IMG/VR virus record: IMGVR_UViG_3300042318_000593
Span: 2,856-66,855 of that record
Origin: a virus
Lineage: Duplodnaviria > Caudoviricetes
Reading direction: 5' to 3' (one strand)
DNA length: 64,000 nt
How positions within the stretch are numbered: position 1 is the stretch's first letter; every line of letters begins with the position of its first letter. The translations under genes and the position numbers were made by a program. A model generated the notes under the pieces. That model made no database searches. It was not told the origin of the DNA and saw only the letters and a list, made by a program, of their open reading frames with translations. Shown here piece by piece: positions 5,009 through 57,533 of this stretch.

Positions 5009-5013
5009 TTTAA

Positions 5014-43019: not shown

Positions 43020-43250
43020 AAAATTCCCTAAAAATTTTTATTATGAATATACATAAAAAAAGTCATTTTTCAAAAAAATTCTGCAGAAATCCGGAACGCG
43101 TGATTGACCCCCTGTTTAGACCCCCCCTAAAAACACTTAAAAAAGGGGGGATACGGGAGGGGGGACCCCCCCTACTACTATACCCACTACTGATAGGGGG
43201 GTTGCCACACAACATTAGTTCCCGAAGGTTCACCTATGGTTACCAACACT

Positions 43251-43274
43251 TTATCCACAACGGAATGTGGATAA
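43251..43274. promoter_or_regulatory. inverted pair of perfect DnaA boxes
   Basis: TTATCCACA-N6-TGTGGATAA. Confidence 0.6.
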
Positions 43275-43313
43275 CTTTATTTGTATATTCTAACTTTGTA
43301 TTAGTATATTCAT

Positions 43314-43321
43314 TAACTTTG
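43314..43321 (+). promoter_or_regulatory. Bacteroidota-type early promoter
   Basis: TAACTTTG (second copy at 43291-43298) before 43341. Confidence 0.6.
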
Positions 43322-43340
43322 TGGGAACAAACAATAAGAT

Positions 43341-43895
43341 ATGAATATTACAAAAACCGAACTAAAAGATATACTATCAGGTATAGATATCTTTGTCCCT
43401 AATGTGGGATTGACAACATTAAAAAAAGTTAAGATGAATAAGTATCTTGACTTCAAACAAAGTGGTAAACAAAACCCTAACCCTTACTACGACCAAGTTT
43501 TAGTGGAACAAAAGTTATCAAATATCCAAACGGGATTTGATTACGATAGTCAATTAGAACGAAAGTATAAGAACGAGGGAATTACCCCTATTGTAAACGA
43601 GGACAAAAAAGAAAGTCCTTATCAGTTAGTATCAAAGTGTTTAGTTATGTTAAAGTCGGATAACACGAAATTCTATTTTCGTTATCAAGACCACAATAGT
43701 TCTTACCTTGATACACGATATTTGATTGAGGGTAATAGTATTGAAAAGTTATTGTTTCAACAATATATGATTGATACCAAGTCCGACTATTCAAAGTATC
43801 AAAATGGTTTAGAGAATACTTTAAACTATAAGGTAATGTCTTTAGACCACATTAAAAGAATTAAAATTCTTAAACAAGAATACACAATTCTTTAA
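43341..43895 (+). CDS. hypothetical early protein
   Basis: 184 aa, first gene of the + strand block. Confidence 0.7.
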   Translation: MNITKTELKDILSGIDIFVPNVGLTTLKKVKMNKYLDFKQSGKQNPNPYYDQVLVEQKLSNIQTGFDYDSQLERKYKNEGITPIVNEDKKESPYQLVSKCLVMLKSDNTKFYFRYQDHNSSYLDTRYLIEGNSIEKLLFQQYMIDTKSDYSKYQNGLENTLNYKVMSLDHIKRIKILKQEYTIL

Positions 43896-43915
43896 GGTTA
43901 GTTCCCCCACTAACC

Positions 43916-43944
43916 GACCACTCCGAAAGGGGTGGTTTTTTTTT
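43916..43944 (+). terminator. intrinsic terminator
   Basis: GACCACTCC-GAAA-GGGGTGGTT plus T-tract. Confidence 0.8.
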
Positions 43945-43973
43945 GACCATATTCACCTCCGTAATCCATAATG

Positions 43974-44294
43974 TTGTTTGGCATTTGTCATACAACCCAT
44001 AGATATCTGTGAATCATGTAAAGTTGTTTGGCAATTGTCATACACCCACAGATGTCTGGACACCGGGGAATATGGTTTGGCAAATTCAAATTGAAAGAGA
44101 AGATAAGGTTCCACGTCCGTGATTTTATTGTTTGGCAAAATTTGTCATACAAACCCTCTTGAGTCCCCGACGGGAAAATTGTTGTTTGGCATTTACGGAT
44201 ATGGTATAGTATATCTACGGATATTATCGGATATGCCAATCAAGTTTTGGTAACCGATCAGGATGTTGGGGGTTCGGTATTACATGCCAATCAA
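43974..44294. repeat. phased array of seven TTG(T/A)TTGGCA motifs
   Basis: Starts at 43974, 44024, 44073 (variant), 44128, 44182, 44234 (rev), 44285 (rev); spacing 49-55 bp. Confidence 0.85.
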
Positions 44295-44419
44295 TATCGT
44301 AGCTCTGTCCACAGGTGAAAAATCTTGGTATTACATTTAACATAGGTTTAACAAGTAATTCTTAATAGATAAGAATTATAAAGAAAAAAGTATTATATTT
44401 GTGGTCTAAAACAAACAAA

Positions 44420-44662
44420 ATGAAAAAAGCAAATGTTGTGATTATCTCACAAAACGAATTCGGTGTTGAACCAAACATTACTAAATTGTTCTTATCTACT
44501 AATGATGAATGTTTCAAAGAAAGTGGTGATACTTTTGATGAATACGTTATTGAACAAACTAATAATGTGGTAGGTATGTATAATCATTCAATCGTATTGG
44601 GTGAAGAAACTTTTGATAACCTCTATGAAGTAGAGTGTGAAGAAACTGAAATGGAGTATTAA
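44420..44662 (+). CDS. small acidic early protein
   Basis: Start MKKANVV after TATATTTG (44394-44401). Confidence 0.65.
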   Translation: MKKANVVIISQNEFGVEPNITKLFLSTNDECFKESGDTFDEYVIEQTNNVVGMYNHSIVLGEETFDNLYEVECEETEMEY

Positions 44663-44693
44663 ATTATTGTTGGTTCTGGTTTTTCATAACTTT

Positions 44694-44720
44694 CCCCTCG
44701 TAGAAATACGGGGGGTTTTT
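44694..44720 (+). terminator. conserved CCCTCGTA-type terminator
   Basis: CCCCTCGTA-GAAA-TACGGGGGG-TTTTT. Confidence 0.8.
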
Positions 44721-44761
44721 GTTTTATGAAGATTCCGTTGTAGAATCGTCTCCAGGAAATG

Positions 44762-45036
44762 TTGTTTGGCAGGAAAGTTCTCTAAATGTTGTCCCCTTGG
44801 TTTTACACTATTTACTAAAAGTTCTCTAAAATCCTATGAAACCCTTTGTGGTATTGAGTTGTTAGTCGGGGTGAATTCCCGACAGTGAAGTCCTGTACAA
44901 TTTGTTTGGCAATGCCAATCAAAATATTCTGATCAGTCGTCCCACGGGGGATTGTCGTATTACATATGCCAAACAATATATTGACCGGGTCTTCTTCCCA
45001 CGGGAACTCGTATTACATATTAACAATGTTTTAACA
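44762..45036. repeat. motif-rich spacer (TTGTTTGGCA/TGCCAAWCAA, CGTATTACA, TTAACA-N5-TTAACA)
   Basis: Motifs at 44762, 44902, 44913, 44956, 44967, 45009, 45020-45036. Confidence 0.8.
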
Positions 45037-45103
45037 GATATATCATAATTTATTTTGTGATATCAAAACTTTGTATTACCTTCGGGGTCTAAATATAAAT
45101 GAT

Positions 45104-45316
45104 ATGATAGTAAATGATGTTCTCGTAAACCCAAATATATTAATGGGTAAAAGAGTTAGACTTATTGAACCAATGGAAGATGACCCTCAACCAATTTTGG
45201 TTGGTCGTGAAGGAGTTGTTTACAATGTTGGTTTTGATGTTGTAAATGTTAAATGGGATAACGGAAGAAGTCTCGGTCTTATTATTGGTAAAGATATTTT
45301 TGAAGTATTAAATTAA
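45104..45316 (+). CDS. DUF4314-like protein
   Basis: GKRVRLI..M.DDPQPI..G..G.V...VKWDNGRSLGLI.GKD; promoter TTTG-N19-TACCTTCG. Confidence 0.7.
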   Translation: MIVNDVLVNPNILMGKRVRLIEPMEDDPQPILVGREGVVYNVGFDVVNVKWDNGRSLGLIIGKDIFEVLN

Positions 45317-45321
45317 TTATT

Positions 45322-45585
45322 ATGTTAGTAAAATATACAACCCAAGAATTTAAAACAAGTAGTGGTAATGAAGTATCTATCATACCTACTTTTTATAAAG
45401 TTAAAATTAAAGTAGATTACCTCAATAGAAAAGACGGAAATATGAGTAGTAGTATTATTACAATACCTATGAATAATCTTGGTGACCTTATTACCGAACT
45501 TAAAAAATTAGAGAGAGAATATAAGGCACATAAAATTGTTGATGATATGTGTAAGGAATTAAATAATGAATTAAATATTAAATAA
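45322..45585 (+). CDS. hypothetical protein
   Basis: 87 aa ORF in operon. Confidence 0.6.
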   Translation: MLVKYTTQEFKTSSGNEVSIIPTFYKVKIKVDYLNRKDGNMSSSIITIPMNNLGDLITELKKLEREYKAHKIVDDMCKELNNELNIK

Positions 45586-45587
45586 AA

Positions 45588-45758
45588 ATGGAAAAATTCA
45601 AATGTTGTTTATGTGGTAAGGAAGTTGAGGGTTATGGTAATGACCCAAGTCCTATACAAACTGAAAATGAGAATGACGAATGTTGTGATGAATGTAATCT
45701 GGCAAAAGTCGTTCCTGCAAGAATGGAATTAATATTCACTAATCTAAAATTAAATTAA
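45588..45758 (+). CDS. small zinc-finger protein (56 aa, not in ORF track)
   Basis: CCLCG...GYGNDP.P...CCDECN...VVPAR; fills the gap exactly. Confidence 0.7.
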   Translation: MEKFKCCLCGKEVEGYGNDPSPIQTENENDECCDECNLAKVVPARMELIFTNLKLN

Positions 45759-46109
45759 ATGTTAATTAAATTAACCCACAGAGGTACACCAACATTAGTA
45801 AATGTTGACCATATCGTTTCTATCTATATGGATACTGATATGAAAAGTGGTTTGGTACAATCCAAAGTAACCACAAGTAATGGAATTGTTTTCGTTGAGG
45901 AGACGTTGAATGTAATCCAAAAATTAGCTTGGCAAGTGAAGAATGGTATTCCACCTGAAATGGACTATGAAGTTCCTACTATTGATAGTAGAATAGAGAA
46001 ATCATATAACAATGATAGACCTTTGTCTTACACTCCAACAAGTCATAGAGTTCGTACTCCTATGAGAAGAAATTATAACCCTCATAATTTCAACGATAAT
46101 AACTATTAG
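45759..46109 (+). CDS. FlbD-like small protein
   Basis: IKLT...LVNVDHIVSI...VEETL pattern. Confidence 0.5.
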   Translation: MLIKLTHRGTPTLVNVDHIVSIYMDTDMKSGLVQSKVTTSNGIVFVEETLNVIQKLAWQVKNGIPPEMDYEVPTIDSRIEKSYNNDRPLSYTPTSHRVRTPMRRNYNPHNFNDNNY

Positions 46110-46139
46110 TTTTTCTGTTTGTGAGTTCATATTGTGTTT

Positions 46140-46167
46140 CCCCTCGTATTACGTACGGGGGGTTTTT
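46140..46167 (+). terminator. conserved CCCTCGTA-type terminator
   Basis: CCCCTCGTA-TTACG-TACGGGGGG-TTTTT. Confidence 0.8.
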
Positions 46168-46214
46168 ATTTTAACCCCTTAGGTACTACCCGTGAAGTTA
46201 CAGTGCCGCAGGAG

Positions 46215-46528
46215 GATATTGTTTGGCAACGTAATACAAGTCAAAATGAAACTTATCGTTCAAACACAAGTCATTTATTAATCATTTTGACACCTATTTG
46301 ACCGATAAACGTATTACATATGATCGATAAACTTACCCCGTCACCCTGATCGTCCGTAGGAATTTTGTTTGGCATGTTCACGTATTACGAATGTTCACGG
46401 AACGTGAACAATAAGAATTAGTGAACAACACGACTTGCTACAGATCCTGGTGAGAATTTGTTTGGCATTTGCCAATCAATATCCGGATGGTGCCAACAGG
46501 TGAAAAATTCTTTAACAAAGTTTTAACT
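46215..46528. repeat. motif-rich spacer
   Basis: TTGTTTGGCA at 46219, 46365, 46458 plus inverted copy at 46470; four GTTCAC/GTGAAC; TTAACA box 46512-46528. Confidence 0.8.
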
Positions 46529-46584
46529 ACAATATTTGTGTATGTTATATAAAAGACTTACCTTTATACTCTAAATTAAACACT

Positions 46585-47127
46585 ATGAAAAAATTTGAAT
46601 TAGAAGTCGTTCAAGACACAGACCCTGAAAGTCCTCGTACTTGGGATAACTTGGGTACAATGGTTTGTTTTCACAAAAGGTATGACTTGGGTGATAAGAC
46701 TGATTATCGTACGGAAGATTATGATAGTTGGGAAGAATTAAAAGAAGGTATCATTAAAAACGAAGGTGAAGTTGTTATCTTACCTTTGTATCTTTACGAC
46801 CACTCGGGTATAACTATATCCACAAGTTCGTTCAGTTGTCGTTGGGATAGTGGTCAAGTTGGTTTTATCTTTGTATCAAAGTATAAGATAAAGAAAGAAG
46901 GTATTGATGAAACAAAAGTTGAAGAATACCTTAAAGGTGAAGTTGAAACTTACGACCAATACCTTACGGGCGACGTTTGGGGTTATAAGGTATATGAAAT
47001 TGAAACTTGTGAATTAGGACACGAACATAAAAACGAAGTTGAAAGTAATTGGGGTATGTACGGACACGATGAATGTGAAAGTGAAGGGAAGTCCGTAATA
47101 GAACATTGGGAAAAGATAGTTGTGTAG
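46585..47127 (+). CDS. conserved acidic phage/plasmid hypothetical protein
   Basis: DPESPR, LPLYLYDHSG, WDSGQVG, YDQYLTGDVWG; promoter TACCTTTA at 46559. Confidence 0.7.
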   Translation: MKKFELEVVQDTDPESPRTWDNLGTMVCFHKRYDLGDKTDYRTEDYDSWEELKEGIIKNEGEVVILPLYLYDHSGITISTSSFSCRWDSGQVGFIFVSKYKIKKEGIDETKVEEYLKGEVETYDQYLTGDVWGYKVYEIETCELGHEHKNEVESNWGMYGHDECESEGKSVIEHWEKIVV

Positions 47128-47153
47128 AAATACATAAGGTTGGAAAGGTGAAG

Positions 47154-47180
47154 ACCCTCGTAGAAATACGGGGGTTTTTT
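47154..47180 (+). terminator. conserved CCCTCGTA-type terminator
   Basis: ACCCTCGTA-GAAA-TACGGGGGT-TTTT. Confidence 0.8.
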
Positions 47181-47217
47181 ATTTACGAGAAGTTTTGGTT
47201 CGGATCCCATCTGAATG

Positions 47218-47416
47218 TTGTTTGGCAGTTCGTATTACACTTACCTGATTCCCACAGCGCATGCGTTGAAACTTGTTTGGCATTTGCCAATCAATATCAC
47301 CACTGGACAGACATCCAAAATAAATGATCAATTTTGCCAAACAATATGTCCACTGGTCCTGAGCTGGAAATAAACTGGTTGAACATCGTATTACATGTGG
47401 ATAACTATGTGGATAA
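47218..47416. repeat. motif-rich spacer with tandem DnaA boxes
   Basis: Motifs at 47218, 47273, 47285 (rev), 47335 (rev); CGTATTACA x2; TGTGGATAA at 47396 and 47408. Confidence 0.8.
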
Positions 47417-47499
47417 GTTTATTAAAATATATTCTAAATAATTTGGAATATATAAAAAAATATTCCTTATCTTCGTGGTCTAATCAAAAAATAATTTTT

Positions 47500-48267
47500 A
47501 TGTCACAACAAGACAAACAAGTAGGTTCTATCATAAAGACAACTTCTTATGATAGATACAAGTTCAACTCATTACAAAGAGTAACAAAAGAGAAACATGT
47601 AAAAGACTTAATGGAAAAGATGAAATCTCATGGATTCTTACCAAACAAGGCTATTAGTGTTAATGAAAAGAATGAAATCATTGACGGACACCACCGATAT
47701 TTGGCGGCTAAGTCATTAGGTATTCCAATGTTAATTCAAGTTTGTAAGGGTATGACACAAGATTCAATTATCCAAGCGAATCAGTTACAAGAGAATTGGA
47801 ATAAACACGATTTTACAAACACCTACGCGATTCAAGGTAACCCTAACTATATCGCGTTAAAGGAGTTTATGGAAAAGTATCCTAAGTTTAAAATGACACA
47901 AGCTTTAATCTTATTGGTAAATGAACCTAACGCTCACCCAAGAGCCAAAGTTTTCCAAAGTGGAGAATTTAAAATTGGTTCTATTAAAAAAGCTGAAGAA
48001 GTTGCTAAGAAGGTTGAAGAATTGGCGATACACCACCCTAAAGCTTATGGTTCTAAATGTATCTCAGCCTTAATGTGTTGTGAAATGAGATGTAAAGGAT
48101 TCTCATTCAAAGAATTCATTGAGAAGTTATCTAAATTCCCTGACAAATTAACCCCAAGTATTACAACTAAAGCTTACTTAGAGAAATTTGAAGAAGTTTA
48201 TAACTATCACAGAGCGAAGAAACAACAACTTAGACTAAGAGATTTATCTTCGGATTTTGAAAAATAA
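47500..48267 (+). CDS. ParB/Srx N-terminal domain protein
   Basis: QR...HVKDL...ISVN...IIDGHHRYLAAK.LG; start MSQQDK after TATCTTCG. Confidence 0.75.
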   Translation: MSQQDKQVGSIIKTTSYDRYKFNSLQRVTKEKHVKDLMEKMKSHGFLPNKAISVNEKNEIIDGHHRYLAAKSLGIPMLIQVCKGMTQDSIIQANQLQENWNKHDFTNTYAIQGNPNYIALKEFMEKYPKFKMTQALILLVNEPNAHPRAKVFQSGEFKIGSIKKAEEVAKKVEELAIHHPKAYGSKCISALMCCEMRCKGFSFKEFIEKLSKFPDKLTPSITTKAYLEKFEEVYNYHRAKKQQLRLRDLSSDFEK

Positions 48268-48292
48268 AATGTTTTGGTTAGTTGATAATAGG

Positions 48293-48324
48293 AGTCCTCA
48301 TCGTTAATTCGGTGGGGATTTTTT
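48293..48324 (+). terminator. intrinsic terminator
   Basis: AGTCCTCATCG-TTAATT-CGGTGGGGATT-TTTT. Confidence 0.7.
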
Positions 48325-48356
48325 ATTTGGTATAACACCTGTGGACATAAAATATA

Positions 48357-48570
48357 TTGTTTGGCAAACGTATTACAACCCATCTTGAGTCAGTTTACTC
48401 AGTTAATGTTGTTTGGCATTTGCCAATCAATATCGGGGGATCGCAGCAGGTGGACACATTTACATCAAATAGTGTATTATATTACACATTCGTTTGTCTT
48501 TTTATTATTCGTATTACATATTACATCAAATAGTGTATTATATTACACATTCTTTAACAAAGTGTTAACA
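48357..48570. repeat. motif-rich spacer with exact 32-bp duplication
   Basis: Motifs at 48357, 48409, 48421 (rev); TTACATCAAATAGTGTATTATATTACACATTC at 48460 and 48521; TTAACA-N5-TTAACA box. Confidence 0.8.
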
Positions 48571-48626
48571 ACTATTATTTGGTGAGTAATATAAAAAGAC
48601 TACCTTTATGTTCTAAATTAATTTAT

Positions 48627-49475
48627 ATGAACGAACAAGTAAAAACATTATTAGACAAAACCAACCTGAATTGGTCGGTACGTCAAGAGAACATTCAAAC
48701 CACAAGTGGTATTATTGTTCCAAACAAAAAGGCAATCGTTAGAGATGACAACAACATGATCGTTGGTTTGCATTCTGATGGTTATGTTCCTTATCAGAAC
48801 CATGAGTTGATGGACTTATTACATCAAGTATCGGGTAGAACGGGTTTAGAAATTCATCGTGGAGGTGAGTTCAAGGATGGCGGTCGTATCTACGTTCAAC
48901 TAAAAGGAAATGATTTGAAGTTAGGTAATGACAGAATTGAAGGTTTCTTAACGGGGGTGAATTCTTTTGATGGTTCAACATCATTAGCATTTGGTCATTC
49001 TAATACGACTATCAGTTGTATGAACACGTTCTTTAGAGTTATGAGTGGACTTCAAAACAAAGTTCGACACACAAAGTCTATGTCTTTAAAAGTTGAAGAC
49101 ATCTGCAGACGTTTGGATATTGTTTTGCAAGAAGAGAAAGAAACATTCAGATTCATTACTGAATTGAGTGAAACACGTTTTGACGATTTGTTGAAGGAGA
49201 AGGTGACACGAAAATTGTTTGGCATCAAACCTGAAGTTGATTTAAATGATGAAGATGCGTTATCTACAAGAACACGTAATAACTTATCAAGATTCTACAT
49301 TGACTTAAATGGTGAGTTGTCTCAAAAGGGTGATAATATGTGGGGTTTATTTAGTGGTGTAACAAAATACACTACACACTCTTATAGTAAGAACGATAAT
49401 ACCGAAGCAAAAATGTTCGGTGGTATTGGTCAAGTTGAACAAGAGATATTTTCAGATTTGGTTCATATGGTTTAA
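48627..49475 (+). CDS. DUF932-family protein
   Basis: LNWSV, AIVRDD, Y.PYQN, GGRIY, NSFDGS, ISCMNT, RHT, WGLFSGVT.Y. Confidence 0.85.
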   Translation: MNEQVKTLLDKTNLNWSVRQENIQTTSGIIVPNKKAIVRDDNNMIVGLHSDGYVPYQNHELMDLLHQVSGRTGLEIHRGGEFKDGGRIYVQLKGNDLKLGNDRIEGFLTGVNSFDGSTSLAFGHSNTTISCMNTFFRVMSGLQNKVRHTKSMSLKVEDICRRLDIVLQEEKETFRFITELSETRFDDLLKEKVTRKLFGIKPEVDLNDEDALSTRTRNNLSRFYIDLNGELSQKGDNMWGLFSGVTKYTTHSYSKNDNTEAKMFGGIGQVEQEIFSDLVHMV

Positions 49476-49502
49476 TAGTTAGGTTTGTGTTTTCCCCCTC
49501 CC

Positions 49503-49530
49503 GACCCTCTACGAAAGTAGGGGGTTTTTT
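49503..49530 (+). terminator. intrinsic terminator
   Basis: GACCCTCTAC-GAAA-GTAGGGGGTT-TTTT. Confidence 0.8.
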
Positions 49531-49566
49531 ATTTTATCAAAATACGCACAGTGCCGGCGAGGAATA

Positions 49567-49738
49567 TTGTTTGGCAATCGTATTACAAATACTAGCGCCT
49601 GGTAAGCATTGTGATGTTGTTTGGCAACAGCGTATTACACTTGTTACCTTTTTATATAAATTAGTAACACTGCCAAACAATATCGTAGATCCGATCACAG
49701 GTATTACATCTGTTAATTTCTTTAACAAAGTTTTAACA
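49567..49738. repeat. motif-rich spacer
   Basis: Motifs at 49567, 49617, 49671 (rev); GTATTACA x3; TTAACA at 49722 and 49733. Confidence 0.8.
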
Positions 49739-49795
49739 ATTCAATTTGTTTGATAAAGAAAAAACAATTATCTTCGTGGTCTAAACTTATTAAAC

Positions 49796-50053
49796 ATGGA
49801 CAAGAAAGAAATTACCCGACAACTACAAGAAGCTTCTAATTGGATTTATGAAATATCTAATTATGAAGAAAATAATGAACCACATATCAAAGATATGTTG
49901 GAGGGTATTCAAAATGCAATTAATAAATTATCTATGGATGTTATTGAAGTAGATGTTAGTTTTTATCACCCTGACGATGATGAAACCAAAAAGGTTTATG
50001 ATGAAGAAGGTATGAGAGAAGAATTTGAAAACAAATTAAAACAATTAATATGA
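49796..50053 (+). CDS. small acidic early protein
   Basis: 85 aa; TATCTTCG promoter at 49769. Confidence 0.65.
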   Translation: MDKKEITRQLQEASNWIYEISNYEENNEPHIKDMLEGIQNAINKLSMDVIEVDVSFYHPDDDETKKVYDEEGMREEFENKLKQLI

Positions 50054-50304
50054 AACTACACATTTTAAAAATCCACGACAGGAATGACCACTTATCTGAT
50101 GATTTTTTTCTTACTATTCCATTCTTAAGAGATAGAGTGGTAAAAGATTGGTATGATATATGGAATGAATCAACTATTACCAAACAACAAATAATCGAGA
50201 GTGATGAATTGTTATTCGACTATATGGATAGTTTTGGTTATGATGTTGAAACCATTTTAACAATCACCGAACACGACATTAATCAAGTTTTAAATAAAGT
50301 ATAA
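50050..50304 (+). CDS. hypothetical protein
   Basis: 84 aa, translationally coupled. Confidence 0.6.
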   Translation: MKLHILKIHDRNDHLSDDFFLTIPFLRDRVVKDWYDIWNESTITKQQIIESDELLFDYMDSFGYDVETILTITEHDINQVLNKV

Positions 50305-50543
50305 TGATAGTAGAACTAAAATCCGTCGCATCAGTAATCGACACAGAAACCAAGATTGTTTATCCCAAATATGAGATGGGAGGGTTCGACAAATTGTCTG
50401 GCAGACATCTCGACGATTTGGATAAGAAGTTTGTGGATGAGATATCCGAAGCTGATATCACACTAATTAACGAATCACTTAAACCAAAAGTAGACCCATA
50501 CGACGATTTGTTTCGTAAGGTGGGTGTAAGAAATAAATTTTAA
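50304..50543 (+). CDS. hypothetical protein
   Basis: 79 aa, translationally coupled. Confidence 0.6.
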   Translation: MIVELKSVASVIDTETKIVYPKYEMGGFDKLSGRHLDDLDKKFVDEISEADITLINESLKPKVDPYDDLFRKVGVRNKF

Positions 50544-50546
50544 GTT

Positions 50547-50840
50547 ATGAAAAATAATGATAGAATAATTGAGTTATTGGATGAGTTGAATACTTTGACT
50601 TTAAATGATTTTTTAGATAATTTGAAGTGGGAAGATATTAAACACTACAAATATAAACAGCCATCAGGTACTCCAATATATAGACATTTTGTTACCATAC
50701 CACAATATTATCCGAAGGGTACTAAAGATATTAGATATCGTTGTAAACCCATTTATGGTGGTAGAATGGATGAAGTGGATTTAAACAATATTAATTATAG
50801 GTCATATGTAATTACTAAAATTAAAAATAAACTAACATGA
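50547..50840 (+). CDS. hypothetical protein
   Basis: 97 aa in operon. Confidence 0.6.
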   Translation: MKNNDRIIELLDELNTLTLNDFLDNLKWEDIKHYKYKQPSGTPIYRHFVTIPQYYPKGTKDIRYRCKPIYGGRMDEVDLNNINYRSYVITKIKNKLT

Positions 50841-51121
50841 AAACATTTGAATTCTTTTTAGACCAAAAGGTTACCACGTGGATGAGAACCGACTTTGAAG
50901 TTAAGGCTAACGACTTAAATGAGGCAGTTAAGATTGCCAAACAAATGTATGAAGACGGAGACCTTGAACAGATTAGTTGGGAAGAGATTATGGATACAAA
51001 GGAAGTATTACAACCAAAGGATAATGGTGGTGAATCTACGGCTGAGATATACAATATGAATCAGTTGGGTGATGTATTAGAAGTTTTCTCTAATAAAGTT
51101 GACCAAGTCAAAAATTTTTAG
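50837..51121 (+). CDS. DpnD/PcfM-like small protein
   Basis: FEVKANDLNEAVKIAKQMY.DG pattern. Confidence 0.5.
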   Translation: MKTFEFFLDQKVTTWMRTDFEVKANDLNEAVKIAKQMYEDGDLEQISWEEIMDTKEVLQPKDNGGESTAEIYNMNQLGDVLEVFSNKVDQVKNF

Positions 51122-51360
51122 TATATTATATAGTGTTTAATAATTAAGTGTTTGGTTAGTTGTACAATGGAGATCTACGGATCTCCATTTTTATTAGATG
51201 TAATACCAGTAATGGGCCTGGTGAGATATTGTTTGGCAAGATCTGTTTAACTTTTTTGATTAAATCTTCCACATATAATAAAAAAATAAATAATTTAAAA
51301 AATTTGTTGGTTTGTATTAAAATATGTATTACCTTTGTACTTCATTAAATCCGTATAATT

Positions 51361-51537
51361 ATGACCACGAAGATAATTTTATCTCCAAGTAAAAAAACGT
51401 ACGATGTTTGGTATTCCAATAACGGCAATACTTTCGTATTACACAAGAGTTTTAAATCAATAGACGAAGCGATTAAAGAGACGACTATAATAAATGGTTC
51501 TTTAAAGTTATTTAAAGACGTATTACAAAATAAATAG
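51361..51537 (+). CDS. small early protein (58 aa, not in ORF track)
   Basis: MTTKIILSPSKKTYDVW...; between TACCTTTG promoter (51330) and terminator. Confidence 0.6.
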   Translation: MTTKIILSPSKKTYDVWYSNNGNTFVLHKSFKSIDEAIKETTIINGSLKLFKDVLQNK

Positions 51538-51563
51538 AGAAGGTGGGTTAGTAAGTTTAGTTA

Positions 51564-51594
51564 GATCCCTCGTAGAAGTACGGGGGATTTTTTT
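51564..51594 (+). terminator. conserved CCCTCGTA-type terminator
   Basis: GATCCCTCGTA-GAAG-TACGGGGGATT-TTTT. Confidence 0.8.
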
Positions 51595-51806
51595 GCGCTG
51601 AAGTAGCTGTGCAAATTTCTAGCGCAGCACAGCACCGATATTGTTTGGCAATTTAAGTTTTATTGATAATCAACGAGTTATGTTTGCCAAACAAATTCCC
51701 CCTGTGCGCCTCTGCTGGATTTTACAGCGCAAATGTTGCCAATCAATATCAGCCAGCTGCGCCTACCAGTTTTTCTGGTAAAATCCTTTAGCAAAAATTT
51801 AACAAA
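51595..51806. repeat. motif-rich spacer with GCGC cluster
   Basis: Motifs at 51641, 51685 (rev), 51737 (rev); five GCGC. Confidence 0.75.
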
Positions 51807-51879
51807 AAATACTTGGATTATTTTTGGTGGTATAAAAATAAAAAGTTTATCTTTGTATCCTAAACTTAAAAATTATATT

Positions 51880-52476
51880 ATGGGAACAAGAAATTTAACA
51901 ATGGTAATCTCCAATGGAGAAACAAAAGTAGCACAATACGGACAATGGGATGGATACCCATCAGGTAATGGTCTTATTGTGTTAGAGTTCTTACAAACAA
52001 CCAATTTGGAAGAATTTAAAAAGAAACTAAACAAAGTTTTCTTTACAAACGGAAACAAAGAAAAAGAAATTCAGAATTGGTTAAAGACTATTGGATGTGA
52101 GAATGGTTGGATGACAGGAGACCAGTCAAAGTTATATCAAGAGAAGTATCCATACCTCACAAGAGATAATGGTGCAAGAATTCTCGAAATGATTAGAGAT
52201 GGTGAAGAAGATGAGATTTGGATTACCGATAGTACAGACTTCGCAGGTGATAGTTTATTCTGTGAGTGGGCTTATCTTGTAGATTTGGATAAGAATGTAT
52301 TAGAAGTTTATGAGGGTTTTAATAAAGAACCACTAACAATAGAGGATAGGTTCTTTAATCTAACTGATAAAGAAAGTGAGTATCACCCAATCAAATTGAT
52401 TAAATCTTATCAGTTAAATAATTTACCATTTGAGGACGAGTTCCTAAATGATTTTAAACAAGAACAAGAAAATTAA
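51880..52476 (+). CDS. conserved hypothetical protein (MGTR...WDGYP family)
   Basis: MGTR, YGQWDGYPSG, CEWAYLVDLD; promoter TTTG-N21-TATCTTTG. Confidence 0.7.
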   Translation: MGTRNLTMVISNGETKVAQYGQWDGYPSGNGLIVLEFLQTTNLEEFKKKLNKVFFTNGNKEKEIQNWLKTIGCENGWMTGDQSKLYQEKYPYLTRDNGARILEMIRDGEEDEIWITDSTDFAGDSLFCEWAYLVDLDKNVLEVYEGFNKEPLTIEDRFFNLTDKESEYHPIKLIKSYQLNNLPFEDEFLNDFKQEQEN

Positions 52477-52481
52477 TTATC

Positions 52482-53147
52482 ATGCCAAACTGGTGTAATA
52501 ACAACATAACAATAAGTGGTGATGAGGGTACAATTCGTACTCTCACCGCCGTTCTTAAGAGTATTAAGACTTCAGATGAAGAACAAAGTAATAATGTCTT
52601 CCAATCCCTTATAGGGTTACCCCAACATATGTCTGAAGGTGATTACAAAGAGAAGTGGTACGATACTAACATTGAATGGTTCGGTACTAAATGGGACATC
52701 TCATATAGTGAGGATATGTTTACATTTACCAAAGATGAAATCAGTTTCTTCTGTGAAACGGCTTGGTCACCACCAATTCCATTCCTACAGAACTTATGTG
52801 AGATGTACAAGGTGAATGCACACCTGTTCTATTCTGAAGGCGGTGTTGGATTCGCAGGTGAAACAACATTTAATTGGACAAAACCTGACTACTCCGCTGG
52901 TGAAGTTGAAGGTGAATTAGAAGTATATGACGACGAATGTGGATACCTCGAGGGAATATACAAATACTCAAGAGAGGAGTTTTGGTCTGAAGTTGAAAGT
53001 AGAGTAGATTGTATATTGGATGAGGAACAAACATTAGAAGACTTCATATCCGAGTTCGACTTCGTATCTGATGAAGACAAGGAAGAATTAACAAGATTAT
53101 ATAACGAAACAATTAAAGAAAATGACGAAGAATCCGAAGGTGAGTAA
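52482..53147 (+). CDS. DUF1281/YubB ferredoxin-like domain protein
   Basis: MPNWCNN, WY..NI.WFGTKWD, ETAWSPP, YSEGGVGFAG. Confidence 0.75.
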   Translation: MPNWCNNNITISGDEGTIRTLTAVLKSIKTSDEEQSNNVFQSLIGLPQHMSEGDYKEKWYDTNIEWFGTKWDISYSEDMFTFTKDEISFFCETAWSPPIPFLQNLCEMYKVNAHLFYSEGGVGFAGETTFNWTKPDYSAGEVEGELEVYDDECGYLEGIYKYSREEFWSEVESRVDCILDEEQTLEDFISEFDFVSDEDKEELTRLYNETIKENDEESEGE

Positions 53148-53343
53148 GACCACCTATCCCGAAAAACAACTGACTCAACAAGAGTGGTTCGAACAATTTG
53201 GTGTGGCAAGTGCGTACACCAAACCAACTCCATACTATGGAGGCAATGAGTTCAACACCCGAGTCTTTCTCGGAGGAATGACCAGGCCGAATTGGTTTGG
53301 CAAAATTATTAACATATTAAATCCATTATCATGGGCAAATTAA
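53122..53343 (+). CDS. hypothetical protein
   Basis: 73 aa overlapping both neighbours. Confidence 0.5.
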   Translation: MTKNPKVSKTTYPEKQLTQQEWFEQFGVASAYTKPTPYYGGNEFNTRVFLGGMTRPNWFGKIINILNPLSWAN

Positions 53344-53822
53344 ACAACGGAGTTTTCCTTAAGGTCACGGGGAACCAAGAACAAAGACCGCAGTGGGAAC
53401 AATTTATAACTGATGATCACGGAACAGATCTCCATCCGGAAATTGGTTTGGCAAGATTTGTAGAGGTTTATAAAGACCGAATAACTTCGGTGAAGACAAA
53501 CATACAAGAATTAGCCGACTTAGAGGTGATCATACTTCAGATCCGAGCACTGTCAAATTTGGTTGGCAATGTGAAACTATATACCGTTAAGGACAAGTAT
53601 ATCTATGCCAGAACAAATTTCTACAGAAGCGATAACGAGATCAATGAACTTCGTATTCTAATAGACCCAATAGACCTCTACTTCCCGAACGGCACAGTGG
53701 ATCCTCAGATATTGTTTGGCAATGAGGACTTTATGAAGAAGGTGTATTACAAGTTAAGGACATGTATGTTAGAAACTATCATAGAGAATGTGGATAACTT
53801 TACTAAAATATATTCTAACTAA
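53331..53822 (+). CDS. hypothetical protein
   Basis: 163 aa; carries embedded TTGGCA motifs and a DnaA box. Confidence 0.6.
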   Translation: MGKLNNGVFLKVTGNQEQRPQWEQFITDDHGTDLHPEIGLARFVEVYKDRITSVKTNIQELADLEVIILQIRALSNLVGNVKLYTVKDKYIYARTNFYRSDNEINELRILIDPIDLYFPNGTVDPQILFGNEDFMKKVYYKLRTCMLETIIENVDNFTKIYSN

Positions 53823-53880
53823 ATTTGGTATATACGAATAAACGATTTAACTTTATCCCCATAAACTAAACTAAATTAAA

Positions 53881-54504
53881 ATGAATCAAATTACTCTCTC
53901 CGAAAATGTAATGGTGTCTGACCCTTGTTATACACCCGACACTTGGTGTCAAACCAAATTAAATAATGTATTACCCGGTAAGTACAATGTCGAGGTAGAT
54001 AAACACGACGAAGGAACAGGTTGGGGTGTACGAGTGTCAAGTATTACAGTAATCCACGAGGATTATACTGATACTGATGATTGGGAACAACACAGTGAAT
54101 GTGGTGTTGACTCAGGTCAGTGTGGAATCTTTTGTATGACAAGTTACCGTAATGATGAAATGTCTGTAGGTATTACAACACCCACACTTGATAACCCATT
54201 TGTATTACCTTACAATGATAAGGGAGGTGATATGTGGTATGAGAAGATGTGTCACTTCACACTACATAAAGATCAGTGGGGTTTGTATGACACAGGTGTG
54301 GTATCCTCATCAGGTATCGGGGATGGTCAATATCCTTTGGATGTAATGATGGATGGAGATAAGATTGTCGGGATGAGGATTACATATCTTGGGAACTCCG
54401 ACGAGGACCTCTTAGATGAGGGTGATTGTTGTGGGGTATGTGGAGGTGAGTTAGAATCCGACGGGGAATGTGTTTATTGTTGTGACGAATCAAAAGATAA
54501 ATAA
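53881..54504 (+). CDS. DUF4241-like protein
   Basis: VSDPCY, PGKY, GVDSGQCGI, SSGIGDGQY; C-terminal CxxC..CxxC. Confidence 0.7.
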   Translation: MNQITLSENVMVSDPCYTPDTWCQTKLNNVLPGKYNVEVDKHDEGTGWGVRVSSITVIHEDYTDTDDWEQHSECGVDSGQCGIFCMTSYRNDEMSVGITTPTLDNPFVLPYNDKGGDMWYEKMCHFTLHKDQWGLYDTGVVSSSGIGDGQYPLDVMMDGDKIVGMRITYLGNSDEDLLDEGDCCGVCGGELESDGECVYCCDESKDK

Positions 54505-54505
54505 T

Positions 54506-54832
54506 ATGAACTACAATTCAAGGGAAGAAGTAAAGAACTTAAGAATCAAGTTCTGTAATGAGATAGAGAATCTATTTCAAGTTGGTCAGACCATAGAGTT
54601 TACCAACCCGTTCACAGTGTATGTAACGGAGGAGAATGAATTTGATTCCTCAATGATTAAGGTACCATACATAGTTAAGACAATGTCTGATGGGCAGTAC
54701 TTTACAGGTACCACACCATATGGGGATGAGTTCGATGACCTATCCACCTACGACTTGGAAGATATAGTAGAGGTGGCATATATCTTGGATACTATTGGTG
54801 ATAAACAATATAAACTATTAGAAAATGAATGA
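54506..54832 (+). CDS. hypothetical protein
   Basis: Start at MNYNSR. Confidence 0.6.
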   Translation: MNYNSREEVKNLRIKFCNEIENLFQVGQTIEFTNPFTVYVTEENEFDSSMIKVPYIVKTMSDGQYFTGTTPYGDEFDDLSTYDLEDIVEVAYILDTIGDKQYKLLENE

Positions 54833-55007
54833 TCAATTAGTTAAACTATGGATTAAGGATCAGATATCCAAGATCCAACGAAAGATGGATTCGGGTTATA
54901 TACTGACTTGGGTAGGTAGAGCTAAGATAGAAGTCCTACAAGATTTCTATGACACCTTCAACTTAGATAATGTTAACATCGAAATTAAATACCATGACAA
55001 AGTTTAA
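54825..55007 (+). CDS. hypothetical protein
   Basis: 60 aa coupled ORF. Confidence 0.55.
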   Translation: MNDQLVKLWIKDQISKIQRKMDSGYILTWVGRAKIEVLQDFYDTFNLDNVNIEIKYHDKV

Positions 55008-55125
55008 ATTCTTTTGGGACCAACACATCCTATATTACCTCATGAGTACTGAGGAACACTTCAACTACATGGCCGGTAAATGGGGTGATAGGTGGTACGA
55101 TCATATGGATGAGAAGTTCGGGTGA
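54994..55125 (+). CDS. small protein with N-terminal FKFF motif (43 aa, not in ORF track)
   Basis: MTKFKFFWDQHILYYLMS... Confidence 0.4.
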   Translation: MTKFKFFWDQHILYYLMSTEEHFNYMAGKWGDRWYDHMDEKFG

Positions 55126-55244
55126 TCGGGACAGTGGATCTGTGGGATGTTGTTTGGCAACTACTATTTTGACAAATTCAAAAAAAAGTTGCCTTAAATT
55201 TTTTATTACCATTTTTTGTTGTTATATTTTATTATAAACAATTA

Positions 55245-55454
55245 ATGATTATGAAAAAAACAACAACAAGCAAGATGAAAAAATCTGCTACAGCTCGTCG
55301 CACCAAGACAACTTATGTACCTGTATCTAACAATGTTTACTTCGACGGTAGTTCATACCGTGTAAGAGCATCTGTTAACGGTTCTAAGATCTCTAAGAAC
55401 TTCTCAAACAAGAGAACAGCAATTACATTCCGCAACCAATTATTGGCAGCGTAA
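55245..55454 (+). CDS. small basic AP2-like DNA-binding protein
   Basis: NVYFDGSSYRVRASVNG..ISKNF...AI.FRN; K/T/R-rich N-terminal tail. Confidence 0.6.
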   Translation: MIMKKTTTSKMKKSATARRTKTTYVPVSNNVYFDGSSYRVRASVNGSKISKNFSNKRTAITFRNQLLAA

Positions 55455-55617
55455 TCGTATTATAGACGAACAATAATGGACCCTCCACTTATTGTGGGGG
55501 GTTTATTGTTTAAAGACGATACCTGATCAGGATCTGATCGATCCGATATTGTCTGGCAAAACAAACAGGATCTACAACAGCAGCACTGTCAATGTTGTTT
55601 GGCAATATTTATATAAC

Positions 55618-56538
55618 ATGAGACTAAGTAAATTAAAAGGATTAACAGAGGATGACCAACCAGTGGATGGTGATATGAGGGGAATAGATAAGTTGAAGTA
55701 TGCCAGTGATAAGTTTGTTCAGACCATTCATAAGTATAGGAAACAAAATCTGTTCTGGAAGAAGATCAGTATACCTGAAGGTGAGATTCATAGTACTATA
55801 AGATTGGAGGAGGTTCCTTTCTCTGTAACCAGTTATAAAGATAAATTCCTCGGGAACATTACATGTTCTATTGACTTCAAACCAAACATGGATCCAAAAC
55901 CTGTTATCCCGTTGAACCTACTTCAGGTGGCAGCAACAGACTTCATTGATAGTATGTTAGAGATTAATCCTGATCTAAAGGATAAACCATCCATATACCC
56001 TACAGATATATTGGACATGTATCACTTTAGTTTCAGTAACGTGAATATCTATCCAGCCCAAGGTGTATTACACCTAAGGGACTACATGGATACCCCAACG
56101 TATAACTTAAGATTACTATCCCCAAATGGGTTTGGTGGTATTATGTTCTCAAGATCATTTCTATTAAATGTATATAAATTAAATCCAGGGGATGTTCCAA
56201 CCTTCGACGACGAATATTCTTTGGCAATGGCTAAGTTGGTAAAGAAAGCCAAATCAGTTTATAACGGACTGAAGAAGGGAACTTGGAAAGGTCATACATA
56301 TGAACTATCCGCCCCACTTGATTGGACCAAAGCCTTTATAGTACATCAAGATAGGTTTGACTACAATAGAACCGATAAGGTATTACGTCCTAACTTCGAG
56401 ATCAGATGTAATGTTGGTTGGGAGATTGTTGATGGTATAAAGAACACCCCTGAAGATTCACCTCTATCCAAAGAGGAACAACAAGAATTCCGTGAATATC
56501 TAAAGAACCGTTTCAAGAACTTCAACATCGGTTATTAA
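55618..56538 (+). CDS. putative head-internal protein with C-terminal KKAKxxYKAL-family domain
   Basis: TATTTATA at 55606; leader MRLSKLKGLTE; KKAKSVYNGLKKG...YEL...RFKNFNI. Confidence 0.6.
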   Translation: MRLSKLKGLTEDDQPVDGDMRGIDKLKYASDKFVQTIHKYRKQNLFWKKISIPEGEIHSTIRLEEVPFSVTSYKDKFLGNITCSIDFKPNMDPKPVIPLNLLQVAATDFIDSMLEINPDLKDKPSIYPTDILDMYHFSFSNVNIYPAQGVLHLRDYMDTPTYNLRLLSPNGFGGIMFSRSFLLNVYKLNPGDVPTFDDEYSLAMAKLVKKAKSVYNGLKKGTWKGHTYELSAPLDWTKAFIVHQDRFDYNRTDKVLRPNFEIRCNVGWEIVDGIKNTPEDSPLSKEEQQEFREYLKNRFKNFNIGY

Positions 56539-56539
56539 T

Positions 56540-57360
56540 TCGTATTACATAACAAGCTTACTTACGGGGACCCATAGGGTCCCCTTCAGGTTTTAGGGAT
56601 GTCCGTACTTGAACCATTTGTATGACGGACAATAGTGTTTGGCCTAATGAATTCTATGAATATTGTTTGGCATTATTTTGTTTAAGTATTACACTTAAAT
56701 GGTTAAACACAGATTCCCCCGATATTGTCTGGCAAGATCGACTGTATTACGGGTGTGGGTAAAATGTGGATAACTATCTCCCTCCCTTCGGTCGGTCGTC
56801 AGGGTGTATGACAAGGGTCCATAATGTGGATAACTTGTGAACCTATAACGTACTTTATGTTAAATGGAATGGAACGTATTACGGGACAGTGTATTACGTA
56901 TGAACGGGTTTATATATATGTAAATAAAACGGACACTATGACAGACCTGAAGGGGTCCGAAGGACCCCGTATTACAGTTATATATTCAAATTTTTTAGGA
57001 TATGGGTCTCTATTCGGTCAAGGGTCAATCCCCACATACTACCACTTTTCCCCACTTTCTCCCCAAAATGACGCTGGTATACCTACAATCAATAAATATT
57101 AGTAAAAGTGGGATTATCAGACCAATTTATATTCTACGATAAAAATATGTAAATAAAACCCCTCTAACAGGGTCAGTATCGGGGATAAAATGGGGGTAAT
57201 TTTCAGGGGTCTAAAGGTGGGATTTTTGTACCAATATAGAGCAATTACGTCCTCCCTACGGTCGGACTTCGGGGGGTAAACAGGATGTTCCCGACACGGA
57301 TGTCGGAGACATAGTGGGATAAAACAGGTCCAAAGTCGGAACTAAAACGTGGACAATCTC
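56540..57360. other. GC-rich non-coding region closing the early block
   Basis: Hairpins GGGGACCC-ATA-GGGTCCCC and GGGGTCC-GAA-GGACCCC; DnaA boxes at 56765 and 56825; GTATTAC words; G-runs. Confidence 0.6.
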
Positions 57361-57398
57361 GGAAGTTTATCCTATCTTTGTCTCCTTAAAATATACCT

Positions 57399-57533
57399 AT
57401 GGAAAACAATATCAACTTAGACGAACTATTATTAATCGGTGATTATTCAATATGTCAATATTCAGGATTACCTTCTGTGAGTTCTTATGTAATGGAAGAA
57501 GAGAATGAGGACTTCTATACGGGACATTCTTAA
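57399..57533 (+). CDS. small acidic protein (44 aa, not in ORF track)
   Basis: MENNINLDELL...CQYSGLPSV; TATCTTTG promoter at 57373. Confidence 0.5.
   Translation: MENNINLDELLLIGDYSICQYSGLPSVSSYVMEEENEDFYTGHS

Follow-up and report, generated by a model that had tools for sequence, protein, structure and literature searches.

Multi-site operator arrays are known as a kind, and four described systems resemble the one treated here: the stoperators of Cluster A mycobacteriophages, the KorB operators of plasmid RK2, the arm-type sites of tyrosine integrases and the iterons of Rep proteins. The locus lies in the IMG/VR record IMGVR_UViG_3300042318_000593 (Duplodnaviria; Caudoviricetes), of which a stretch of 64,000 nt (record positions 2,856 to 66,855) was analysed and is called the window. 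Within it, an asymmetric word of 10–14 bp built on TTGTTTGGCA, present in ~45 copies by weight matrix, is confined to one block of short operons. In the multi-site arrays the copies are phased and mostly convergent and stand between terminator-like hairpins and promoter-like sequences, and more distant relatives keep the layout with another word. The window system shares features with all four described systems and fails a defining feature of each; it appears to stand apart by its grammar, which is unusual, and by a natural series of switches in specificity. The reading developed below, whose chances are judged to be about even, is that the copies form arrays of operators or enhancers upstream of the promoters, and that a factor recognising the sequence would assemble a phased complex on them, co-ordinating the early cassettes.

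Stoperators are spread genome-wide, lie inside transcribed regions, are oriented with transcription and stop elongation; in Cluster A, operator and repressor diverge together between sub-lineages. The Cluster A repressor is described (PMC9283540) as recognizing an asymmetric sequence that is found many times over the genome, and the evolution of immunity specificities in these phages is the subject of PMC6550527. Tens of copies of an asymmetric operator of 13–14 bp are the point of likeness with Cluster A (L5-type) stoperators, the monomeric repressor being Cluster A's own. Unlike stoperators, the window sites form one block, lie upstream of promoters, take both orientations (77 convergent vs 10 divergent pairs over nine pooled sequence sets) and are phased at 52 bp. 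No helix-turn-helix or repressor family was found among the block proteins scanned (10 with Pfam and PHROGs, 20 more with Pfam, 10 of these also with PHROGs), a scan that covered the block and not the whole genome.

KorB, a ParB-family protein of the IncP plasmid RK2, exerts global control through a palindromic operator, OB, repeated about a dozen times and often distant upstream of promoters. A repeated palindromic operator upstream of promoters, with a ParB-like gene among the regulated genes, would describe the window too; however, each OB is a single 13-bp palindrome without phased half-sites, and the ParB-like gene of the window fails the covariation and presence tests given below. Arm-type sites of tyrosine integrases (lambda Int, P4-like, HPI) are likewise short, asymmetric and bidirectional, and are read by a small beta-sheet domain in a wrapped complex, a domain to which a free-standing AP2-like protein of the block has a weak fold likeness (3jtz, 3rmp). 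Unlike in those systems, no integrase, core site or attachment (att) structure was seen here, no search aimed at an integrase having been made; the sites stand before about 12 promoters, and the AP2-like protein does not vary with the word. Rep iterons (plasmids, phage P1 or P4) are contiguous, about two helical turns in period, and occupy one or two loci beside the rep gene. The window word resembles them as a lineage-specific, phased direct and inverted repeat and differs in a spacing of five turns (49–56 bp), in its distribution over about 12 promoter-tied loci and in that no initiator family was found in the block proteins scanned. Finally, the host-takeover module of Bacillus phage SPO1 is a compact block of short operons with their own host-sigma promoters and terminators, expressed first and then shut off; in SPO1 we know of no counterpart to the phased, lineage-specific arrays upstream of promoters. 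The window block is like that module (PMC13401047) in being compact and made of many short operons, each with its own promoter and terminator, and it would likewise be expressed early and later shut off.

Exact copies of TTGTTTGGCA number 27 in the window (22 on the + strand, 5 on the − strand), all at 43,974–56,672, against a shuffle expectation of 0.10. The pattern TTG[T/A]TTGGCA (TTGWTTGGCA) matches 34 times vs 0.27 expected, the seven further matches being TTGATTGGCA on the − strand, i.e. TGCCAATCAA on the + strand. With at most one mismatch, TTGTTTGGCA is matched 47 times and 47/47 matches fall inside 43,203–56,734 (13.5 kb), where the whole window is expected to yield 5.0 and the shuffle maximum was 13; the remaining ~50 kb of the window have none. 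No copy was seen in the 2,855 record bases preceding the window, and the sole TTGGCA there is without a preceding TTGTT. A position weight matrix trained on the 34 TTGWTTGGCA copies lengthens the word to (G)ATATTG(T/A)TTGGCA(A) and, at a threshold of ≥12 bits, finds 45 sites, 44 of them within 43,203–56,734; the lone site beyond the block, at 6,020, is weak (13 bits) and has no GGCA. A first-pass annotation of this DNA had counted 22 and 5 exact copies on the two strands and 7 variants, which is correct by pattern count, and had seen none in the first 43 kb, which is true; the complete relative G001 makes the stronger case, with 32/34 copies in 18 kb of its 335,630 bp. It had also known of no described system with this motif. 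Consistent with this, a literal full-text literature search for the word showed no description among the matches listed, which are primers and unrelated sequences, and a keyword search on jumbo phage, Bacteroidota and early promoter themes returned nothing on such arrays among the matches listed. A scan of viral contigs with a single 14-mer gave at least 117 one-copy matches, which are attributed to chance and were not used. Readings of the word as a sigma-54 promoter, a promoter of a single-subunit RNA polymerase or a variant −7 element were rejected by eye, because the spacing of a second word, GTATTAC, varies by 1–5 nt, the sites are bidirectional and TA-N3-TTTG is unlike TAnnTTTG.

All genes at 43,900–57,400 are on the + strand, in short operons. 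Spacers run from a terminator hairpin through the array, in several cases a TTAACAAAGTTTTAAC-like box, and a promoter of the form TTTG-N17-22-TAnnTT[T/C][G/A] to the gene; the TTTG / TAnnTTTG form is the sigma-A type of Bacteroidota, and matches to sigma-70-type promoters are not enriched in the window (63 vs 64 expected). Seven arrays have at least three sites, and all seven come after a terminator-like hairpin and ahead of a host-type promoter on the + strand; for these multi-site arrays the earlier description of sites filling the spacers from terminator to promoter holds. In a regular-expression search, the end of the −7 element lies 87–178 nt past the last site for 6/7 of them; for the first array the promoter was read by eye at 44,394–44,401, 107 nt past the last site. 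This array (43,974–44,294, + + + + + − −) is the seven-in-a-row already noted in the first pass and is real: it follows the terminator at 43,916–43,937 and precedes the promoter of the 44,420 gene, its start-to-start steps are 50, 49, 55, 54, 52 and 51 bp, and its third site is the variant TGGTTTGGCA. The inverted units reported at 44,902, 46,458, 47,273 and 48,409 are equally real, with gaps of 1–2 nt. They stand in the second array (44,762–44,976), where a + site, the palindromic unit (44,902+/44,913−) and a − site precede a −7 element ending at 45,084; in the third (46,219–46,479), with two + sites and the unit 46,458+/46,470− before a −7 element ending at 46,566; in the fourth (47,218–47,344), where two DnaA-box words and then the ParB-like gene's promoter come after a + site, the unit 47,273+/47,285− and a − site; and in the fifth (48,357–48,430), with a + site and the unit 48,409+/48,421−, the −7 element ending at 48,608. 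Array 6 (49,567–49,680) reads + + − in steps of 50 and 54 bp, with a −7 element ending at 49,776, and array 8 (51,641–51,746) reads + − −, with one ending at 51,855. As regular-expression strings, the seven orientations are ++++--, ++--, +++-, ++--, ++-, ++- and +--; the fifth + site of the first array, a variant, was overlooked by that search.

Sites outside these arrays are all on the + strand in the following five places. A single site at 51,229–51,238 comes after a terminator (51,166–51,189) and upstream of the 51,361 gene. Where operons abut without a spacer (53,822/53,881), sites are placed within the upstream gene: four of them, at 53,293, 53,444, 53,559 and 53,712 (53,293–53,721; three are one-mismatch variants), all precede the 53,881 gene's promoter, the first 29 nt ahead of the start of a gene for a 163-aa protein (53,331–53,822, +) and the other three inside it. 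The top-scoring single site (55,150–55,159, 26.2 bits) stands 86 nt before the AP2-like gene begins. TTGTCTGGCA and TTGTTTGGCA, lying 46 bp from each other, occupy 55,549–55,604, and the second adjoins a TATTTATA word, 14 nt ahead of the ATG at 55,618. The last two (56,663 and 56,725; 56,663–56,734) are in a conserved non-coding region, 56,540–57,400, of ~850 bp without a convincing gene, which also holds dense GTATTAC, DnaA boxes and G+C-rich hairpins. This region is conserved in G001 and G002 (66–74% when read as a 92-aa frame) and matches nothing in Rfam at gathering score; an origin, an RNA gene and a control region are possible readings. Stretches between sites (e.g. 47,255–47,268, 51,590–51,640 and 51,700–51,770) are G+C-rich and often hold palindromic words (GCGCATGC, CAGCTG, GCGC), as do the spacers of class F, one of the word classes defined below.

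The record of 66,855 bp has no end repeat and a CheckV completeness of 20. Because the region of the motif block is syntenic with IMG/VR contigs of 310–335 kb rated 95–100% complete (protein identity 50–97%), the window is best taken as about one-fifth (about 20%) of a freshwater jumbo phage of that size, and the record as a fragment. At least half of the sampled words of 43,900–52,000 are present in 18 lake-water DNA sequencing runs, three of which may be where the record comes from; 6 RNA runs contain 5–10% of them, which is not counted as evidence of expression. Genome G+C is 31%, and most large window proteins match neither PHROGs nor Pfam. Loci of relatives were collected with the universal 69-aa AP2-like protein as bait. 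All 22 loci obtained were k-mer profiled, and 16 of them plus the window made up the 17 loci used for protein families and alignments; the six left out (L170, L171, L173, L181, L182 and L184) have profiles identical or close to those of L169, L174 and L179/L183. Another relative, L141, is a 13-kb phage-like contig binned in a Bacteroidota metagenome-assembled genome (MAG).

A scan of related phages, suggested in the first pass, found the word present in relatives and confined to the same syntenic block (besides G001, 27/27 copies in the block of G002 and 22/22 in G003). More distant relatives keep the layout with another word, e.g. TTACTGGGG, TTTACTGGAT, TTGTTTCGCA or TTAGTTTGGC. Class words, taken as the most over-represented 10-mers per lineage over the 22 loci, are GATATTGTTTGGCA in class A, ATATTGTCTGGCA in A1, TTGT[G/C/T]TGGCA in A2, GATnTTGTTTCGCAC in B, GATTTAGTTTGGCG in C, TTTACTGGATTAA in D, TTTACTGGGATG in E, ATTACTGGGGTA in F and AAAACTGGAA in G, where the top 10-mers have 7–8 copies in a 16.5-kb locus beginning at a contig end. 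Confinement recurs with other words: G005 (class D) has 35/39 word copies in 18 kb and G007 (class F) at least 27/30 in 10 kb, and matches to the same word pattern lie scattered in G006, a class-A genome. Class D and F spacers keep the same order, terminator, → →← ←, promoter. Since genome-wide reciprocal best hits place G001 (class A) nearer to the class-D G005 (median 63%) than to the class-A G006 (56%), the class A word looks ancestral and the ACTGG-type words derived. A change of word on a constant layout would fit a co-evolving protein–DNA pair.

The grammar of the sites was counted over nine pooled sequence sets (window, G001, L166, L141, L167, L124, G006, G005 and G007), several of which are close relatives and not independent. 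The ~52-bp phasing proposed in the first pass is borne out: 45/89 same-orientation neighbours up to 200 bp apart are at 49–56 bp, and lesser groups gather near 105 and 150 bp. Pairs are convergent in 77 cases and divergent in 10, and the tight palindromic unit (11–14 bp) accounts for 32 of the 77. In G006, the most distant phage of class A, each stereotyped cassette has just one convergent pair, 14–26 nt apart, which makes the convergent pair the conserved unit and the phased arrays an elaboration of it. The early cassettes of G006 at 240,700–261,000 (L234–L236) are near-copies of one another, sharing ~40 nt (TAATCCAGAGTCTGAAGATG...) between site pair and promoter, from which it follows that entire regulatory cassettes were duplicated.

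Conservation was read from three orthologous spacers, with four relatives aligned to each and window positions compared as cells. Motif positions matched in 399/440 cells (91%), GTATTAC positions in 122/168 (73%) and the remaining positions of the array zones in 1,154/2,316 (50%); entire site-bearing units are gained and lost between the spacers of relatives. Copies embedded in coding sequence at 49,215, 50,935 and 53,712 had been offered in the first pass as a sign of selection on the DNA motif. All three are real. The 53,712 copy reads I-L-F-G-N. As TTGT[T/C]TGGCA it occupies the same codons in all loci examined from classes A, A1, A2 and C (11/11), and in 3/3 class-F loci the place holds the class-F word GATTTACTGGGT, reading L-L-G-N. 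Classes B, D, E and G (four loci) lack it there; elsewhere in the gene, D has two copies, G one, and B and E none. Because this copy is kept at the same codons and swapped for the class-F word in class F, the DNA word is selected even at the protein's expense. The isolated copy at 49,215–49,224 (+), inside a DUF932 gene and reading K-L-F-G, is probably a coding coincidence, its position not being kept in the 60%-identical relative L118, and the same doubt attaches to the copies at 50,935 (−), 50,394, 49,120 and 56,217. Collectively, the copies behave as selected putative protein-binding sites, because they are confined to one block, phased, conserved while the rest drifts and present in every relative examined. 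This supports the first-pass proposal, and none of the four patterns named there as telling against it, namely uniform spread, absence of a ~52-bp period, lack of conservation and decayed genes in the spacers, was found.

The second word, GTATTAC(A), has 44 copies in the window, 35 of which are at 43,900–57,400 (33/35 on the + strand). Many stand 2–7 nt past a + site or 1–3 nt ahead of a − site, always on the GGCA side, and at five promoters one copy stands 73–97 nt ahead of the end of the −7 element (about −80). Irrespective of class word, all five genomes show an excess of GTATTACA in the block (6–24 observed vs 0.6–5.5 expected). GTATTAC(A) is probably read by a second, conserved protein. 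That this reader is the universal AP2-like protein of 69 aa is a guess, plausible because both the word and the small DNA-binding-like protein are invariant. Perfect DnaA-box words (TGTGGATAA, reverse complement of TTATCCACA) occur at 47,396–47,420, 53,790, 56,765 and 56,825; two tandem ones replace the TTAACA box ahead of the ParB-like gene.

Taken as operators for one sequence-specific factor, the copies suggest the following mechanism. The basic unit would be a convergent site pair, placed roughly 90–450 bp upstream of a host-type promoter (TTTG ... TAnnTTT[G/A]) and just past the previous terminator. In the window lineage the pair would have grown into arrays, made of a tight palindrome (1–2 nt gap) and flanking half-sites that point inward, ~52 bp apart; as ~52 bp is five helical turns, these sites would face the same side of the DNA. 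The factor would nucleate on the palindrome, further protomers would join on the phased half-sites, and the spacer would be wrapped or looped into one complex. About a dozen such complexes might then set the activity of all early or host-takeover cassettes together, through upstream activation or timed shut-off. This mechanism is built on observations of the sites themselves, of their grammar and conservation, of where they stand with respect to promoter-like and terminator-like sequences, and of the change of word between lineages; protein binding, complex formation, a regulatory effect and early timing are what it would add to them. Since the multi-site arrays lie 87–178 nt upstream of a host-type promoter, control of promoters is favoured over a centromere, a pull-in signal or protection from nucleases, all entertained in the first pass. 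A centromere, a signal for DNA entry and a decoy thus go unsupported, though each keeps a small probability.

Several points weigh against the operator-array reading. No binder was found among the block proteins or by genome comparison: the scanned block proteins hold no DNA-binding family (Pfam, PHROGs) except a sub-threshold ParB_N, and a covariation comparison across four whole genomes gave no candidate. The gaps between convergent half-sites vary (2, about 12, 14–26, about 33 and about 42 nt), and therefore a rigid dimer could not span all of them. No site overlaps the TTTG/TAnnTTTG core promoter, so that simple repression by occlusion does not fit, and no host-type promoter was found past the sites at 56,663 and 56,725. 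Some isolated coding copies look accidental, duplication of whole cassettes may explain part of the copy number, and promoters and early timing are read from sequence alone, the promoter calls being pattern matches.

The covariation comparison used reciprocal best hits between G001, G005, G006 and G007, with 114 families common to the three large genomes; it includes one motif switch and has little power, as covariation tests here rest on few independent word switches. For three large unannotated proteins, the resemblance of G001 to G006 is relatively greater than that of G001 to G005 (49 v 40, 44 v 35 and 50 v 43% identity, where the genome medians are 56 v 63). The families that are relatively closer between the class-A genomes are large and unannotated but for one weak tail-domain match, one to DUF1599 and one to an HAD domain, the tail-domain match belonging to one of the three proteins, and no DNA-binding candidate emerged from them.

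A partition-type or genome-domain anchor, like parS/ParB, the KorB operators of RK2 or matS/MatP, is an unlikely alternative in which a protein acting as a clamp or bridge would place or compact the block and effects on promoters would be secondary. A density of about one palindromic full site per kb, within a single domain of a large genome, would suit such an anchor, as would the sites without a following promoter; every multi-site array is, however, tied to a promoter, and no ParA-type (ParA/IncC ATPase) family was found in the scanned block proteins, the rest of the ~335-kb genome not having been scanned. The case turns on the ParB_N-like gene inside the block (47,500–48,267, +, 255 aa), which the first pass had named as a possible binder. 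Its product matches Pfam ParB_N at E 0.0024 and 18.3 bits, under the 26.3-bit cut-off, and phrog_12305 ('ParB-like partition protein') at E 6e-28. The gene is present in 10/17 loci (A 6/6, A1, B and both C) and absent in A2 and all six of D–G, hence in 10/11 loci with GGCA-type words and 0/6 with ACTGG-type words. This pattern is suggestive but would represent one evolutionary event, not a repeated one. Moreover, ParB-like alleles are 28–62% identical among phages that share an identical word; the window allele is 28–33% identical to all others, where neighbouring genes reach 97% to L121. The allele tree cuts across motif classes, the class-A L169 grouping with class B and C alleles, and the class-D G005 (97%-complete) has arrays and no ParB-like homologue by tblastn. 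Pfam PF02195 searched over five genomes matched the window gene only and missed the BLAST-detectable homologues of G001 and G006, so that its silence in G005 and G007 is uninformative. Sixteen loci with distant ParB-like relatives have 0–1 copies of the word. The ParB-like protein is thus a poor candidate and probably not the reader of the sites. Compared with L121, L141, L165, L166 and L118, its gene is an allelic hot spot, 28–36% identical between flanks of up to 97%, which looks like gene replacement or an arms-race gene.

Among the other block proteins, the AP2-like protein (55,245–55,454, +; basic, 69 aa) is present at all 17 loci. Its AlphaFold2 model (mean predicted local distance difference test score 80.7) has strands followed by a C-terminal helix at 56–68. 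The best Foldseek match is 3jtz (E 0.55, probability 0.84), and VIA-align gives 7et4 at Z 5.2 (root-mean-square deviation 2.0, 47 aligned), tied with CedA at Z 5.3, then 3rmp at Z 4.5 and 3jtz at Z 4.2. The predicted fold thus weakly resembles AP2 and integrase arm-binding domains; a Pfam search gave no AP2 match. The first pass had put this protein forward too, and as the determinant of class-word specificity it is rejected: nearly the same protein occurs in phages with very different words, such as L185 (class B) and L179 (class F). The 163-aa protein of 53,331–53,822, likewise at all 17 loci, is fast-evolving (26–98% identity between loci) and has no support as a binder, possible as that role is; it is acidic by residue count, with no Foldseek match at E ≤0.001, no usable Atlas match and no clean class-specific columns. 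A 184-aa protein (43,341) gave no lead in Pfam, PHROGs or the Atlas. A well-conserved Cys-rich protein of 252 aa (GYEVCP...C..LCLN), absent from the window, is encoded in the early block of 10/17 loci (L169, L186, L187, L188, L174, L175, L178, L179 at 4,707–5,465, L180 and L183) and is unrelated to the ParB-like family (hhalign probability 3%).

As no phage protein was found to covary with class, the reader might be supplied by the host, the sites recruiting or titrating (as a decoy) a host transcription factor or nucleoid protein, and the classes tracking hosts. This is a doubtful alternative, a little less probable than the anchor. Block genes are exchanged between phages with the word unchanged, and shared hosts could explain the three large proteins that are more alike in the class-A G001 and G006. 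A scan for the 22-bp palindrome over one genome for each of 185,579 species, however, found an array solely on the phage-like L141, the other 22 matches having one palindrome each. In the MAG of L141, outside that contig, the 10-mer occurs 33 times vs 13 for the reversed control; this ratio is about that of an unrelated Mucilaginibacter (51 v 23), and therefore there is no sign of a host regulon. The change from TTGTTTGGCA to TTACTGGGG is also large for an orthologous host factor. The search of candidate Bacteroidota hosts proposed in the first pass thus lends a host factor no positive support, possible as such a reader is. Three matches from Sphingobacteriaceae (L147, L163 and L156) are a shared orthologous intergenic hairpin, in L163 between genes for a peptidase and an outer-membrane protein, and are uninformative. 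Bacteroidales MAG contigs L151 (about 1,013–1,130) and L161 (about 4,913–4,960) carry 22-bp tandem repeats, GGCAATTGCCAAACAACTGTAC-like and containing the half-site TGCCAAACAA, which may be iterons of an unrelated element.

It is very unlikely that the sites are replication iterons, with a phage initiator binding as monomers on direct and as dimers on inverted repeats, at origins or at copy-control (handcuffing) sites. The occurrence of the word as both direct and inverted repeats is the classic duality of Rep and iterons, its lineage specificity is that of incompatibility determinants, and DnaA-box words are present in the block (5 vs 2.2 expected in the window, 5 vs 0.6 in G001). Yet the blocks of G006 and G007 have 0 DnaA boxes, the scanned block proteins include no initiator-type family, and about 12 promoter-tied arrays over 13 kb, spaced at 52 bp, are not contiguous repeats of ~22 bp.

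Still less probable is a signal for DNA entry or a polar trap, which would pace transfer as in the first-step transfer of T5 or form oriented barriers to polymerases or nucleases, like Ter/Tus or Chi. The convergent two-group layout is that of a fork trap, the sites lie between transcription units, and 56,540–57,400 has DnaA-box words and dense repeats; against this, the layout recurs before every promoter, not once, and a 10–14 bp word with 52-bp phasing is unlike Chi. Nor is there evidence that the block lies at a physical end, the record being a fragment without end repeats. The first-pass idea that this is the first-entering DNA is thus unsupported; in G006, which has repeated contig ends, the block is at 226–263 kb of 310 kb, although a contig-end repeat is no sure guide to physical ends.

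Least probable of all, a passive by-product, in which one promoter cassette was duplicated repeatedly and the word is its slowest-decaying, functionless part, would account for the long stretches that G006 cassettes share besides the word and for local words shared within spacer arrays, suggestive of tandem duplication of ~52-bp units, but it is at odds with 91% vs 50% conservation within spacers, with a word kept at a fixed coding place and switched there with class, and with the same grammar in lineages that use different words.

Elsewhere in the window, a full-length transfer-messenger RNA is encoded at 25–425 (+; Rfam RF00023, 92.9 bits), with the tag peptide DNVYNTMEIAGLLATSKVAA by ARAGORN. 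Two nuclease-like proteins, at 35,780–37,423 (−) and 37,436–38,548 (−), both start with MKLLDII. The one of 370 aa has three tandem units of ~70 aa, zinc-finger-like (C-P-x-H ... C-x-x-C), with weak matches to DUF723 and DUF4379, and its C-terminal stretch looks endonuclease-like by eye. The repeats of both proteins (35,780 and 37,436) are fast-evolving in relatives.

It is tempting to go beyond the operator-array reading and to propose, as a long shot, that this family of freshwater jumbo phages labels its early block with a switchable lineage 'address word', a self-recognition code for a genome domain. As parts of the same speculative claim, a factor of an unrecognised kind, possibly delivered by the virion, would fold the block into a nucleoprotein body, and this body would decide which DNA is expressed first and distinguish the early block of the phage itself from a co-infecting relative's. 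If it is true that the reader is a new kind of DNA-binding protein or that the arrays mark a genome domain, the significance would be much greater. The obvious annotated candidate, the ParB-like protein, is probably not the site reader. At least seven motif variants on a layout that stays the same form a natural series, suited to a search for the binder by covariation and to orthogonal promoter-control parts for Bacteroidota. Very little is known of how the programme starts in uncultivated Bacteroidota jumbo phages, and the sequence now offers a testable cis-regulatory grammar for it: a terminator, a phased convergent array of putative operators, an invariant oriented word and a host-type promoter.

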